Assembly: GCF_003991155.1 (NCBI RefSeq)
Contig: NZ_CP031293.1
DNA length: 64,000 nucleotides
Origin: Escherichia coli
GTDB lineage: Bacteria; Pseudomonadota; Gammaproteobacteria; Enterobacterales; Enterobacteriaceae
Direction: 5' to 3' (one strand)
Below, piece after piece: positions 40,101 through 43,100 of this stretch. A program made the position numbers. How positions within the stretch are numbered: the stretch's first letter is position 1; every line of letters begins with the position of its first letter.

Positions 40101-43100
40101 CGCTTCTGCGGGAGATTTTAGCAGCGCCATGTCGTAGTTCTGCGGAATATCTTTGCGGAAATAGAGATGCAACATCACCAGGGTAGCCAGTATTGCAGCG
40201 ATATCCACCGGCACCATCACCGAGGCGTATTCGCGAAAGCCGAGGTCAAAGAAATCTGCCGAAACGATATTCACCAGATTGGAGACAATAAGCGGCAGGC
40301 TGGCGGTATCGGCAATGAATCCGGCCGCCATAACAAACGCCAGCGTAGTGCCTTTGTTGAACCCTAAAGCCAGCAGCATGGCGATGACAATCGGTGTCAA
40401 AATAAGCGCCGCGCCATCATTGGCAAACAGAGCTGCAACGGCAGCACCGAGCAGGACAATCCAGGTAAACAGCAAGCGACCGCGCCCATTGCCCCAGCGT
40501 GAGACGTGCAGCGCCGCCCATTCAAAAAAGCCGGACTCATCCAGCAGCAAGCTGATGATAATGACGGCTATAAACGCCGCCGTCGCGTTCCAGACGATAT
40601 TCCACACCACCGGAATATCGCCCGGATGGACCACGCCAGTAACTAACGCCAGTACGGCGCCCAGTGTCGCACTCCAGCCGATGCCTAAACCTTTCGGCTG
40701 CCAGATAACCAATACGATGGTCAGGACAAAGATAGCGCCCGCCAGTAACATCATGCCTCCTTGATAAAACACATTCGAATATTCATATGTGTTTAGATAA
40801 ATTTTTTAACTACAAATATTCTTACTGTCTGCGGAACAATTTTGTCTGGCGAGGTTACGGACAATCACCTGAACCTTTTCCTGTTCGCATCGCCAGGCCT
40901 GCTCAATAATTTTCGCCGCCCATGCTGGAATATGCGGCGATAAACGGTAATGAACCCACTTTCCTTGCTTGCGGTCCAGCAATAGCCCACTTTCACGCAG
41001 TAATGCCAGATGGCGGGAGATCTTGGGCTGCGACTGATCGAGGGCAGTGCACAGATCGCAGACGCATAACTCTCCCAGCTCGCTGAGCAGTAAAACGATG
41101 CCCAAACGGGTTTCATCGGCAAGAATTTTGAAGAGTTGGATGGGTAACAGAAATGACATATTGCGCTCCTGATTGTTGCACTTAGTGTCTCTCTTCGAAG
41201 CGGATAAGTCAAAAACATATATGGTTTAACGAATGCGTATGTGCAGAGGAAGGTAATAGATGTGAGTTAAGAGTTGGGTATTTATTGGAAAAGACCTGAA
41301 TCAGGACGTAAAAAAACCGACTTTGTGTCGGTTTTTTACTTTCCAGCCCTGAGTTGGTGGCTCTGGCTGGGGTGAGAGAGCTCTTATCTAACGGTTCAAT
41401 ACTATTAGCCAGTGGCTAACATTGCAAGAATTAGCGATTTCTTCAGCTGGCGGAGGGGGCACTTCGGTATATATCGCAGTGACGATTTATATACTTTCAC
41501 TGGGTCATCGTCATATTAAGCCTTGTCCGAATCCGGATGTAAAAAAACCGACTTTGCGTCGGTTTTTTTACTTTCCAGCCCTGAGTTGGTGGCTCTGGCT
41601 GGAGTGAGAATGCCATCATCTAACGCATCAATGCTAATACCATACTGAAACTATTGCAAGGACATGCTGGTTTTATAACCTGAATATACTGTATGATTAT
41701 CCAGTTAGCTCTGAGGCATTTTCACTCTGGCAATGCGCATAAACGCTTTCAAAGTCCTGATCAGTGGTACGGGTGGTGCCGTTAACTGATGCTCTGGCCG
41801 GAGTGAGAATGCCATTATCTAACAATAGGGCATGCGCCGTGACAGGCAATGGATGAGTAAGCGGATGCATTCTCACTCCATCGTATGGAGAACACGGGTG
41901 ATTGATAAAGCAATCATCGTTCTTGGGGCGTTAATTGCGCTGCTGGAACTGATCCGCTTTCTGCTTCAGCTTCTGAACTGATAGCGGAAACGTAGCTAAG
42001 GGCTAAGAGCACACTACTCTTAGCCCTTTAACATTTAACGCATGGTCACGAACTCTTCTGCCGCCGTCGGGTGAATGGCGACGGTATTATCGAAGTCTTT
42101 TTTGGTTGCGCCCATCTTCAGTGCCACCGCGAAGCCCTGCAACATTTCGTCCATACCAAAACCAATGCCGTGAATTCCGACAATCTTCTCTTCCGGTCCA
42201 ACGCATACCAGTTTCATGCGGCACGGCTGGCGGTGAGTGGTGACGGCGGTATACATCGCGGTGAAAGAGGATTTATACACTTTCACCTGATCGTCGCCGT
42301 ACTGCTCGCGTGCCTGCGGTTCCGTTAAACCAACAGTCCCAATCGGCGGATGGCTGAAGACCACGGTCGGAATGTTGCTGTAATCCAGATGCTCATCCGG
42401 CTTGTTATTAAACAGGCGTTCAGAGAGACGGCGACCCGCTGCAACTGCCACCGGTGTCAGTTCCACTGCACCCGTGTTATCGCCCACCGCGTAAATACCT
42501 TCAACGTTGGTATTTTGATATTTATCGACGACGATATAGCCTTTTTCGTTGGTTTTTACACCAGCGGCTTCCAGGTTGATGTTGTCATTGGCAGGCTCGC
42601 GACCAATCGCCCAAATCAGGCAATCCACCGTTTCACTGCGACCATCTTCCAGCTCCAGCGTCAGGCTGCCATCGGCATTTTTCACTACCGCTTTCGGGAT
42701 GGCGTTGGTGTGCAACTGCGGACCTTCGGCGTTCATCACTTCGACCAGAGTTTCAGAGATCATCGGGTCGAAGCTGCGCAGCGGCGCATGTTTACGAACA
42801 AACAGATGCGTTTTCGCGCCGAGGCCGTTAATCACGCCCGCCAGTTCCACGGCGATGTAACCCGCGCCAACAACCGCTACGCGCTCTGGCAAAGCAGGAA
42901 GGGCAAAGAAACCATCGGAATCAATACCGTATTCCACGCCTGGAATATCCGGGTGGCTCGGACGACCGCCGGTGGCGATCAGGACATGATCGGCCGTGAT
43001 GGTTTCACCGTTAACTTCCAGCGTTTTGGCATCAACGAAGCGGGCAAAGCCTTTGATTACATCAACGTTATTTTTACCGAGCACGTTTTCATAGGAGGTA

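Follow-up and report, generated by a model that had tools for sequence, protein, structure and literature searches.

The dinQ-agrAB locus between arsR and gor

Within the 64-kb window, that is, the whole stretch of 64,000 nucleotides of Escherichia coli DNA analysed here, the intergenic region between arsR and gor carries dinQ, which encodes a peptide of 27 amino acids, and two small RNA genes of the Agr family on the opposite strand, referred to below as distal (arsR-proximal) and proximal (dinQ-proximal) (Table 1). Open reading frame positions, the annotation of an identical genome, and the K-12 map agree on this chromosomal site. E. coli genomes with an annotated dinQ between arsR and gorA match the window sequence at 100% identity, RefSeq places dinQ on the identical sequence, and strain 2016C-3878 differs from the window by 2 mismatches over 49.5 kb. 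It is very probable that the locus is the known dinQ-agrAB type I toxin-antitoxin system, and as a locus it is not new: it has been characterised before, RefSeq annotates it, and Rfam has a model for it. The first-pass annotation had likewise recognised a DinQ toxin with two Agr antisense sRNA genes, an assignment on which RefSeq, NCBIfam (toxin_DinQ), and Rfam (RF02891) agree. The spacer between the two agr units contains a relic homologous to a gor-internal segment (42226-42286), with a local alignment score of 47 against 18.5 +/- 2.2 (maximum 26) for shuffled sequences.

Table 1. Coordinates of the genes and signals in and around the window's intergenic stretch between arsR and gor.
Feature	Position	Strand	Basis
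arsR, left flank of the intergenic region	40806..41159	-	ORF; annotation of identical genome
Distal (arsR-proximal) Agr sRNA gene, K-12 agrB slot	41308..41391	-	Rfam RF02891; flanks collinear with K-12 agrB
Distal Agr Rho-independent terminator hairpin (A-run, CCGAC stem, T-run)	41310..41337	-	Repeats; Rfam consensus structure; fold
Distal agr putative sigma-70 promoter (TTGCAA, 17 nt, TAGTAT)	41398..41426	-	Read from sequence; K-12 alignment
gor-derived relic in spacer between agr units	41446..41500	+	Homology to gor-internal segment
Proximal (dinQ-proximal) Agr sRNA gene, K-12 agrA slot	41539..41623	-	Rfam RF02891
Proximal Agr terminator hairpin	41539..41571	-	14-nt arms 100% complementary; Rfam; fold
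Proximal agr putative sigma-70 promoter (TTGCAA, 17 nt, TAGCAT)	41631..41659	-	Read from sequence; K-12 alignment
LexA operator TACTGTATGATTATCCAGTT, overlapping the dinQ -10 region (predicted)	41687..41706	+	Identity to K-12 20-mer
Full-length (+1) dinQ transcript, about 333 nt; +44 processing site at 41747	41704..42036	+	K-12 collinearity
dinQ 5' UTR element 1 (pairs with element 2 in +1 RNA)	41719..41731	+	PMC5066626; folding
Agr target site, dinQ 5' UTR nt 88-120	41791..41823	+	Repeat block; PMC5066626
Element 3 (here extended, 41867-41881), element 4 with SD GGAG (41885-41890; SD 41887-41890)	41867..41890	+	
dinQ CDS, 27 aa, GTG start, single hydrophobic helix	41898..41981	+	ORF; WP_001295215.1; NF041472
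dinQ terminator hairpin, just past the gor stop codon of the other strand	41998..42028	+	12-nt arms 100% complementary
gor (glutathione reductase), right flank	42035..43387	-	ORF; annotation of identical genome

The three parts of the locus are tied together by a 33-nt block found by motif search on the plus strand at 41360-41392, 41592-41624, and 41791-41823. Its motif, GCTCTGGC(Y)GG(R)GTGAGA-N8-ATCTAAC, has exactly 3 matches in the 64-kb window and occurs in 0 of 100 dinucleotide-preserving shuffles, so that the three-copy block is not a product of chance. A unit of about 90 bp had been described as occurring three times; the threefold repeat stands at a length of 33 nt, but only the first two copies lie inside longer units of ~110 bp (41298-41407 and 41529-41639, 87-93% identical), and the alignment shows the dinQ leader to have nothing beyond the 33-nt block in common with them. 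Each of these two copies is preceded on the plus strand by a hairpin of A-run, stem, and T-run, and the third stands in the leader of the 27-codon GTG-initiated frame, both in agreement with the first-pass annotation, as is the closer resemblance of the second copy to the dinQ-leader copy, with 31/33 identical positions compared to 27/33 for the first. The distance from the leader copy to the frame (41898-41981, stop codon counted) is 107 nt.

The dinQ gene and its leader

The DinQ peptide, (M)IDKAIIVLGALIALLELIRFLLQLLN, corresponds to protein WP_001295215.1 and is identical to DinQ of K-12, for which the GTG start and the toxicity have been demonstrated (PMC3567139). The NCBIfam equivalog model NF041472 gives it 54 bits (cut-off 30), while a Pfam search returned no family for DinQ. 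A LexA operator, and with it SOS control, is present as a predicted site: the 20-mer TACTGTATGATTATCCAGTT is identical to the one reported as the dinQ LexA operator in K-12, with a heterology index of 4.83 (PMC3567139). A search for such a box upstream of dinQ had been suggested for 41700..41760, and the site was found at the left edge of that interval. Its core, CTG-N10-CAG at 41689-41704, is the only AT-rich site of this kind near dinQ; the bare CTG-N10-CAG pattern, with 26 matches in the window, was discarded as too loose, only the identity to the K-12 20-mer being informative. For the second, weak LexA operator reported for K-12, no certain location was found at the window locus.

The dinQ transcript aligns to that of K-12 with no indels, and the bases numbered in K-12 (U16, C28, G88, G94, A119, U167, U178, A182, and G187; PMC5066626) all fall on the expected letters. 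The Agr target site, given as G88-A119 for K-12 agrB (PMC5066626), holds both element 2 (41797-41809) and an 8-nt variable segment, ATGCCATT (41809-41816). Elements 3 and 4 form the hairpin CUCCAU-CGU-AUGGAG, and elements 2 and 3 can form a duplex of 13 bp with 100% complementarity (41800-41812 with 41867-41879). The dinQ terminator folds at -19 kcal/mol (z-score -5.5) and, in the alignment, shows a compensatory T/A to A/T change in O157:H7 and S1-JOR-02-A.

The two Agr small RNA genes

On the minus strand, both units match the Rfam AgrB model RF02891 over its full length (1-84), the distal one with 101 bits and the proximal one with 103 bits at a gathering score of 40, and both show the features of the AgrB family: they diverge from dinQ in orientation, their 5' tail is free, and they contain an internal stem-loop followed by a Rho-independent terminator. 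The distal RNA, with its 5' end at 41391, has its antisense block at 41360-41392, within which the variable segment reads GAGCTCTT (41378-41385); its fold has a z-score of -5.1, and an A-to-G change private to it, at 41371, disrupts one of the stem pairs of the Rfam alignment. Its terminator hairpin could in principle act in both directions. The proximal RNA starts at 41623, carries the variable segment ATGCCATC (41610-41617) in its antisense block (41592-41624), and folds with a z-score of -6.4, leaving a free 5' tail of ~20 nt. Weaker Rfam matches on the plus strand (AgrB with 32 and 23 bits, and Spy779816) were rejected, since they reflect the palindromic terminators as these appear on the opposite strand.

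The hexamers of both agr promoters are identical to those of K-12, the proximal ones to K-12 agrA; transcription starts of the K-12 agr genes have been mapped by primer extension (PMC3567139). The calls of promoters and terminators for dinQ and agr were made by homology to these mapped K-12 ends and to the Rfam model. A scan with consensus promoters and terminators detected neither for dinQ or the agr genes, its sole promoter-like site lying at 41725-41696 on the minus strand; the scan neither supports nor refutes the signals, since the agr promoters, at 8/12, narrowly miss its threshold and the stems of the terminators contain too few G-C pairs.

Pairing of the Agr RNAs with the dinQ leader

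In K-12, agrA is the copy adjoining dinQ and agrB the one adjoining arsR, as also in T1TAdb (PMC8594479), the K-12 map placing agrA at 3648063-3648144 and agrB at 3648294-3648375. Alignment through the conserved collinear flanks puts the first unit of the window into the K-12 agrB slot and the second into the agrA slot, and the order "agrA, agrB, dinQ leader" with AgrB as the repressor, as originally proposed, contradicts this map. Those labels are acceptable if names follow function, that is, the most stable duplex, as is the practice in T1TAdb, rather than position.

The best-pairing partner of the dinQ leader differs from that in K-12, as does the target, whose 8-nt variable segment is ATGCCATT in the window compared to GAGTTCTT in K-12. 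The proximal copy of the window pairs with dinQ through 31 Watson-Crick pairs and 1 G-U pair with 1 mismatch in 33 positions (-59.5 kcal/mol), and the distal copy through 27 Watson-Crick pairs with 6 mismatches (-42.3 kcal/mol), 5 of the 6 lying in the unpaired 5' tail, within the 8-nt variable segment; the expectation that RNA from the minus strand of the repeats would form a duplex with the dinQ leader is thereby confirmed in silico, most clearly for the second repeat. The corresponding values in K-12 are 32 Watson-Crick pairs and 1 mismatch (-59.6 kcal/mol) for the distal agrB and 26 Watson-Crick pairs, 4 G-U pairs, and 3 mismatches (-44.1 kcal/mol) for the proximal agrA. The near-perfect complementarity of ~31 nt between an Agr 5' end and dinQ nt 88-119 is thus found in the proximal copy, on a par with K-12 agrB:dinQ, and the wiring of K-12, with a cognate arsR-proximal agrB and a mismatched agrA, is reversed in the window. 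That wiring characterises the K-12 allele and not the dinQ-agrAB family.

With K-12 RNAs in vitro, a partner of -44 kcal/mol neither closes the Shine-Dalgarno (SD) sequence nor blocks translation, while one of -60 does both (PMC5066626). Specificity appears to reside in the 8 variable nucleotides of the 33-nt block through which the RNAs pair. Since the dinQ segment ATGCCATT, in place of GAGTTCTT, matches the proximal and not the distal gene, it is likely, judging by complementarity, that the proximal RNA acts as the antitoxin here and that the distal RNA takes the weak, non-cognate role of K-12 AgrA. An exchange of places between whole agr genes by recombination was considered and rejected: the variable segments of both slots are closest to those of their positional orthologues (distal GAGCTCTT and K-12 GAGTTCTT; proximal ATGCCATC and K-12 TAGCCATC), and the large change sits in the dinQ leader.

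Structural switch and proposed mechanism

Elements 1 to 4 all lie at the positions numbered in K-12, and in silico pair probabilities follow the published switch (PMC5066626). In the +1 RNA of the window, the partition function gives P(1:2)=1.00, and in the +44 RNA P(2:3)=0.99 and P(3:4)=0.01; blocking of nt 88-119 raises the latter to 0.76. Minimum free energy folding of the +1 and +44 RNAs recovered the 1:2 and 2:3 duplexes but neither the 3:4 hairpin nor an open SD, for which reason pair probabilities with the antisense site blocked were used instead. The support from folding is qualitative only, as an increase in SD exposure in the +44 RNA was not reproduced (unpaired probability 0.24 compared to 0.30 in the +1 RNA) and the model misses the experimentally supported 2:3 duplex of K-12 (P=0.02).

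The mechanism that follows has been demonstrated step by step in K-12 and is carried over to this strain on the strength of its near-identical sequence. LexA bound to its operator would repress dinQ until DNA damage lifts the repression. The 333-nt primary transcript starting at 41704 would be untranslatable, because element 1 pairs with element 2 and the SD stays closed in the 3:4 hairpin. Loss of the first 43 nt, creating the new 5' end at 41747, would free element 2 to form the 13-bp duplex with element 3, which would open the SD and allow the 27-aa membrane peptide DinQ to be made from the GTG at 41898. A constitutive antisense RNA of ~84 nt would use its unstructured 5' tail to pair with mRNA nt 88-120 (41791-41823), displacing the 2:3 duplex so that the SD hairpin closes again, and forming a substrate for RNase III.

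Distribution and evolution of the target alleles

The population survey covered 5426 complete E. coli genomes and rests on marginal and pairwise counts. The target allele of the window, ATGCCATT, was found in 1917 of these 5426 genomes, of which 1909 contain a matching agr block, located 199 nt upstream among the matches listed. The K-12 target allele GAGTTCTT is present in 1678/5426 genomes, with a matching distal block in 1490 of the 1678, and the target alleles TAGTCGTC and ATACCATT in 418 and 308 genomes. In a further allele, found in 813 genomes (15%; B2 strains, Nissle 1917 among them), agr and dinQ are fused with loss of both promoters and of the LexA box, the reading frame being intact. 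The second match place in each genome was rejected as another dinQ locus, being a cross-match between the two agr units. On plasmids, 46 match places represent short agr-like or dql-like segments. Outside E. coli, E. albertii, Escherichia sp. E1V33, Serratia, Pantoea, and an Enterobacteriaceae genome each have one agr gene, which is the proximal one by position, while E. whittamii has two agr genes, its dinQ target matching the proximal one.

A reading that is rather more likely than not is that the locus offers two antitoxin slots between which the dinQ target toggles, the proximal slot being ancestral and the K-12 state having arisen by gene conversion. The ancestry of the proximal slot is suggested by the related species, which have that copy only, E. 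whittamii with its two excepted. The K-12 target GAGTTCTT would then derive from short-tract gene conversion of the dinQ leader by the duplicated distal copy, and in the B2-type allele the repeats would have collapsed into a promoterless fusion. On this reading, the antitoxin of DinQ in about half of the sequenced E. coli (target alleles ATGCCATT, 1917; TAGTCGTC, 418; ATACCATT, 308) would be the proximal "AgrA" gene, which work in K-12 classed as non-functional. In the literature library searched, no paper was found to describe such a two-slot or toggling-target arrangement.

Alternative explanations

The K-12 wiring might have been kept, the arsR-proximal copy still working despite its mismatches and the proximal copy being an inert paralogue. 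By position, the distal gene is orthologous to the experimentally validated AgrB, the more abundant RNA in K-12 (PMC3567139), and has kept its promoter hexamers and its terminator. This explanation is nevertheless improbable in view of the 6 true mismatches over the 33 nt (5 in the variable segment), which leave a duplex slightly weaker than that of K-12 AgrA:dinQ, itself unproductive in vitro (PMC5066626), as well as of the stem pair broken by the change at 41371 and of the matching second agr block retained in 1909 of the 1917 genomes with the same target, proximal in the rows and loci inspected. Even less credible is a decaying remnant, in which the dinQ frame and the repeats persist while the system is neither expressed nor functional. 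The 813 genomes with the fusion allele do indicate that an intact reading frame alone is no proof of function; in the window, however, the LexA box, elements 1 to 4, the SD, the GTG, the terminator, and the promoters and terminators of both agr genes are all intact, the protein is the same as that of K-12, and the target changes together with the proximal antisense from lineage to lineage, a covariation that speaks for selection on pairing.

A joint action of the two RNAs, with no single antitoxin, deserves more weight than either but is still unlikely. The proximal RNA would block translation of the +44 dinQ RNA, and the distal RNA would help by partial pairing, for instance by reducing full-length mRNA or as a back-up or sponge. 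In K-12, AgrA RNA is far scarcer than AgrB and rises 9.5-fold in an agrB mutant (PMC3567139), so the RNA from the proximal slot might be too scarce as sole antitoxin; agrA and agrB both reduce the full-length dinQ transcript there (PMC3567139), which, together with the 27/33 complementarity of the distal RNA, makes some cross-repression possible. In the O145 strain RM11626 the two copies are equally stable in their duplexes (-59.9 and -59.5 kcal/mol). Against this, the well-matched RNA alone counteracts toxicity and closes the SD in K-12 (PMC3567139, PMC5066626), the two duplexes of the window lie 17 kcal/mol apart, and many lineages and the outgroups examined, E. whittamii with its two genes aside, get by with one agr gene.

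Implications for nomenclature and experiment

K-12 is the single strain from which the names AgrA ("inactive") and AgrB ("antitoxin") are taken. Applied by position, they would mislabel the antitoxin in about half of E. coli genomes; applied by complementarity, they conceal that the change took place in the target and not in the sRNAs. If real, the swap provides a compact natural case of rewiring between an sRNA and its target via exchange among three short repeats, and it would explain the retention of a seemingly useless agr paralogue. The practical stake lies in "agrB" deletions in non-K-12 strains and in DinQ-dependent SOS, persistence, and depolarisation phenotypes.

Comparison with known systems

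The closest known system is dinQ-agrAB of K-12 (Weel-Sneve et al. 2013, PMC3567139; Kristiansen et al. 2016, PMC5066626), with which the window locus has in common the arsR-gor site, the DinQ peptide, the LexA 20-mer, elements 1 to 4, and a divergent pair of Agr sRNA genes together with their promoter hexamers and terminators, at an intergenic identity of 94.6% and with no rearrangement. The two differ in the target segment (GAGTTCTT in K-12, ATGCCATT in the window), in the well-matched gene, which is arsR-proximal in K-12 and dinQ-proximal in the window, and in the SD-opening 2:3 duplex, which comprises 13 bp in the window compared to ~10 bp in K-12. The dinQ-like dql genes, found on chromosomes and plasmids of Enterobacteriaceae (PMC5066626) and, as part of the DinQ/AgrB family, in T1TAdb (PMC8594479), share the architecture of the 5' UTR, the GGAGTGAGA...ATCTAAC block, and the SD hairpin. 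The dql loci of Serratia, Pantoea, and an Enterobacteriaceae genome have one AgrB-family sRNA gene ~200 nt upstream on the other strand. Unlike the window locus, these loci have one antisense gene, carry other variable segments (CAGCCTTC, ACATCATC, and ACATTATC), and are found elsewhere in the genome; what the window contains is dinQ proper and not a dql paralogue.

Among SOS-induced type I systems of E. coli, tisB-istR1 likewise has a LexA-controlled toxin mRNA that is inert until 5' processing and encodes a small inner-membrane peptide, and a divergent, trans-acting antisense RNA pairs in the 5' UTR and triggers cleavage by RNase III. It resembles dinQ-agrAB in its LexA control, 5' processing, membrane peptide, and divergent antisense RNA, but is unrelated in sequence, relies on one antitoxin RNA that targets a ribosome standby site, and has neither a pair of paralogous antisense genes nor alternative target alleles. 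In zorO/orzO and zorP/orzP, and in the Ibs/Sib systems, short variable stretches of the antisense RNA decide which toxin mRNA is repressed, the same principle as proposed here for the 8-nt segment. In those systems, however, each antisense RNA has a toxin gene of its own, whereas at dinQ two antisense genes compete for one toxin, and which of the two matches the toxin varies between strains.

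Identity and Layout of the Locus

The region between arsR and gor holds the dinQ-agrAB type I toxin-antitoxin system, a recognition already made in the first-pass annotation and on which NCBIfam, Rfam and the annotation of identical genomes agree. Many E. coli chromosomes carry these 875 bp at 100% identity, and in them PGAP names the ORF 'damage-inducible type I toxin DinQ', and strain 2016C-3878 (reverse strand) differs from the window at 2 positions in 49.5 kb. The previously quoted 27-residue peptide of the GTG ORF scores 54 bits against the NCBIfam equivalog NF041472 toxin_DinQ (cut-off 30); a Pfam search with it returned no model. 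Both sRNA genes match Rfam AgrB (gathering score 40) on the minus strand over its full length, and the plus-strand hairpins before the repeats are therefore minus-strand sRNA terminators. In the predicted fold of each Agr RNA, about 20 nt at the 5' end stay unpaired, followed by a stem-loop in the middle and the terminator (z-scores -6.4 for the proximal and -5.1 for the distal RNA). PGAP annotates neither sRNA in the matching genome, and both are annotated in the K-12 record.

What recurs three times is a 33-nt block, GCTCTGGC(C/T)GG(A/G)GTGAGA-N8-ATCTAAC, which appears in 0/100 shuffles of the window and emerges from pairwise alignment of the repeats. The roughly 90-bp unit initially described as present three times thus stands only as this shorter block: two copies are embedded in ~110-bp units, 87-93% identical, each opening with an A-run/CCGAC/loop/GTCGG/T-run hairpin (plus strand reading), and the third is solitary, the dinQ leader being alignable to the agr units only within the 33 nt. 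The best duplex carries a constant C-A mismatch at position 9, GGCC in the dinQ target against GGCT in agr. This holds for the majority of the strains looked at, K-12 and the window among them, and seems too consistent for accident; exceptions are GGCC in the distal copies of S1-JOR-02-A, O145 and E. whittamii, and GGCT in the target of Escherichia sp. E1V33.

The LexA box sought upstream of dinQ was found as the 20-mer TACTGTATGATTATCCAGTT, the same as the K-12 sequence reported as the dinQ LexA operator (PMC3567139). A compensatory double change in the terminator hairpin of two E. coli lineages (O157:H7, L006, and comparison locus L009), at window 42004 and 42022 (AAGGGCTAAGAG...CTCTTAGCCCTT to AAGGGCAAAGAG...CTCTTTGCCCTT), supports the predicted dinQ/gor terminator stem. 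The 59-codon ORF antisense to the dinQ leader, a PGAP 'hypothetical protein' in some genomes (for example comparison loci L005, 1739-1912, L010 and L017), is probably spurious, a gene call across the dinQ 5' UTR.

Features of the arsR-gor region and other RNA elements of the window
Feature	Window coordinates	Strand	Remarks
arsR	40806-41159	minus	left flank of intergenic region
arsR-gor intergenic region	41160-42034		875 bp
110-bp units	41298-41407; 41529-41639		
Distal Agr sRNA gene	41308-41391	minus	RF02891 (AgrB), full length, 101 bits
Proximal Agr sRNA gene	41539-41623	minus	RF02891 (AgrB), full length, 103 bits
33-nt blocks	41360-41392; 41592-41624; 41791-41823		
GGCC/GGCT site	41799 (target); 41368 and 41600 (agr copies)		position 9 of 33-nt block
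gor-homologous fragment	41446-41500		~55 nt; compare gor 42226-42286
LexA operator 20-mer	41687-41706		
59-codon ORF	41697-41876	minus	
Element 1	41719-41731		K-12 U16-C28
Processing site	41747		K-12 +44
Element 2	41797-41809		K-12 G94-G106
Element 3	41870-41881		K-12 U167-U178
Element 4 with SD	41885-41890		K-12 A182-G187
dinQ ORF	41898-41981		GTG start; 27-residue peptide
dinQ terminator	41998-42028		12-bp hairpin
gor	42035-43387	minus	right flank of intergenic region
GadY sRNA	15493-15606	minus	Rfam 150 bits
ES205 sRNA	21386-21457	minus	Rfam 106.5 bits
shuA/chuA 5' UTR RNA thermometer	31128-31159	plus	Rfam 60.1 bits, slightly over gathering score 58

Folding of the dinQ Leader

In K-12, dinQ is repressed by LexA, and its primary transcript is translationally inert until the first 43 nt are removed to give the active +44 RNA; the 5' UTR contains four elements with the alternative pairings 1:2, 2:3 and 3:4, and AgrB bound to G88-A119 closes the SD hairpin again and promotes RNase III cleavage (PMC3567139, PMC5066626). 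The window aligns to K-12 without indels, and with +1 at 41704 all numbered bases fit the expected letter. The published switch is reproduced in silico when the window RNA is folded by partition function: the +1 RNA gives P(1:2) 1.00, P(2:3) 0.00 and P(3:4) 0.58, the +44 RNA P(2:3) 0.99 and P(3:4) 0.01, and the +44 RNA with nt 88-119 blocked P(2:3) 0.00 and P(3:4) 0.76, P(1:2) not being applicable to the latter two. The 2:3 duplex has 13 perfect base pairs in the window (41800-41812 with 41867-41879) versus about 10 in K-12, for which the same model fails to give this duplex; greater exposure of SD bases in +44 is not shown by the model of the window RNA.

Pairing of the Two Agr RNAs with dinQ

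K-12 agrA (3648063-3648144) adjoins dinQ and agrB (3648294-3648375) adjoins arsR, with which T1TAdb concurs (PMC8594479). The intergenic region is collinear throughout between K-12 and the window, so by position the orthologue of unit 1 is agrB and that of unit 2 is agrA. The second block is indeed closer to the dinQ-leader block than the first (31/33 vs 27/33 identical), as had been noted, but its equation with K-12 AgrB, the sole substantive error of the first-pass annotation, gives way to AgrA by position. In K-12 itself, the arsR-proximal copy has one difference from the dinQ target (30/31) and the dinQ-proximal copy six (25/31), and the published match counts agree with the K-12 sequences (PMC3567139). 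The earlier suggestion of duplex prediction with the leader proved productive, the proximal copy giving the best duplex, and complementarity is reversed in the window relative to the K-12 slots.

Predicted pairing of agr copies with the 33-nt dinQ target
Agr copy	agr 8-nt segment	dinQ target 8-nt segment	Watson-Crick/G-U/mismatch	Duplex (kcal/mol)
Window, proximal (agrA slot)	ATGCCATC	ATGCCATT	31/1/1	-59.5
Window, distal (agrB slot)	GAGCTCTT	ATGCCATT	27/0/6	-42.3
K-12, distal (agrB)	GAGTTCTT	GAGTTCTT	32/0/1	-59.6
K-12, proximal (agrA)	TAGCCATC	GAGTTCTT	26/4/3	-44.1

In vitro, a K-12 partner of -60 kcal/mol closes the SD and inhibits translation, and one of -44 kcal/mol does neither (PMC5066626). 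Calibrated on these experiments, the sequences suggest that the antitoxin slot is swapped, the proximal copy being the likely antitoxin in the window. Almost all of the pairing difference falls within the 8 nt between GTGAGA and ATCTAAC, about nt 7-14 of the unpaired Agr tail; both agr slots are close in sequence to their K-12 orthologues, and the changed part is the dinQ target.

In the window haplotype the distal agr copy has a private A-to-G change at 41371, inside the otherwise constant GGAGTGAGA, that adds a mismatch to dinQ and disrupts one stem pairing of the Rfam AgrB alignment; the distal copy folds at -27.9 versus -34.2 kcal/mol for the proximal one. The change is consistent with relaxed constraint on a non-cognate distal copy.

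Alleles and Architectures across E. coli

Allele-specific megablast against 5426 complete E. coli genomes, with joint counts from concatenated queries, recovered the window-type target ATGCCATT in 1917 genomes, the K-12 type GAGTTCTT in 1678, an agr/dinQ fusion in 813, TAGTCGTC in 418 and ATACCATT (O157:H7) in 308. A matching agr block is present in 1909 of the 1917 ATGCCATT-target genomes, as ATGCCATC in 248 (the window haplotype) and as ATGCCATT in 1661 more, and in all rows listed its place is the proximal slot, 199 nt upstream. An identical distal block, 431 nt upstream, occurs in 1490 of the 1678 K-12-type genomes; by arithmetic, about 1215 genomes combine the K-12-identical distal block with a non-matching target. 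Among 17 loci whose sequence was examined directly, the best partner was the proximal copy for TAGTCGTC and ATACCATT targets in all cases and the distal copy for GAGTTCTT targets; one ATGCCCAC target partnered a distal ATGCCCAC copy, and in O145 both copies pair equally.

The fusion (B2-type) allele (L013, E. coli NGF1, 1510-1812; also comparison locus L014; Nissle 1917 is among its genomes) carries a 199-bp deletion from agr repeat to dinQ-leader repeat, leaving one chimeric block (GGCT...TAGCCCAC; 91.6 bits to Rfam AgrB) fused to the dinQ ORF. It lacks the agr promoter, dinQ promoter and LexA box; the DinQ ORF is intact and annotated dinQ. A single agr gene is found in other architectures (L010, strain 2015C-3163; L011; L012; L018, E. 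albertii; L026, Escherichia sp. E1V33). Some one-copy E. coli have an arsR-gor region 232 bp shorter, and others lack arsRB, with arsC abutting the locus; the other Escherichia species among the single-agr loci retain the proximal copy only.

Origin of the Two Slots

Outgroups were surveyed with Rfam and with a pattern scan in which each species was represented by a single genome. A single AgrB-family gene in proximal position, ~200 nt from the target, is found in E. albertii, Escherichia sp. E1V33, Serratia sp. H1w, a Pantoea and an Enterobacteriaceae genome; of the two copies in E. whittamii, the proximal one fits the target. The simplest reading is therefore that the antitoxin originally occupied the proximal slot and that the distal gene was added later by duplication. 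Five of eight clustered positions distinguish the K-12 target GAGTTCTT from ATGCCATT, and the K-12 target is identical to the distal paralogue; from its sequence it looks like the product of short-tract gene conversion. GCAU at nt 164-167, kept in all alleles including K-12, complements AUGC of the ATGCCATT allele, consistent with the same direction of change. The spacer between the agr units contains a gor-homologous fragment in the same orientation as gor (local alignment score 47 versus 18.5 +/- 2.2 for shuffles; 61 in the O157:H7 spacer haplotype), which suggests that the distal unit arose by tandem duplication reaching into gor, followed by internal deletion.

Other Observations

The pattern scan also met E. 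coli-identical dinQ/agr sequences (loci L019, L020 and L022) on short contigs, one of 424 bp assigned to Acinetobacter haemolyticus, one of 1061 bp to a Lachnospiraceae MAG and one to a bin labelled 'uncultured bacterium'; they most likely reflect contamination or mis-binning in those assemblies. The chu haem-uptake operon also lies within the window. In the near-identical NZ_CP029747, gadX is annotated as a partial pseudogene without its N-terminus, abutting IS1B (window about 14038-15481; direct comparison covers coordinates from 14498 onwards), and the acid-resistance regulator beside GadY therefore appears disrupted in the window strain.

Relation to the Known System

No description of slot switching was found among the papers of the searched library that mention dinQ, agrA and agrB, or in related searches. 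T1TAdb avoids the slot question by picking the most stable duplex. The locus is an already known, annotated and modelled system, to which the predicted swap adds a re-wiring observation of modest value.
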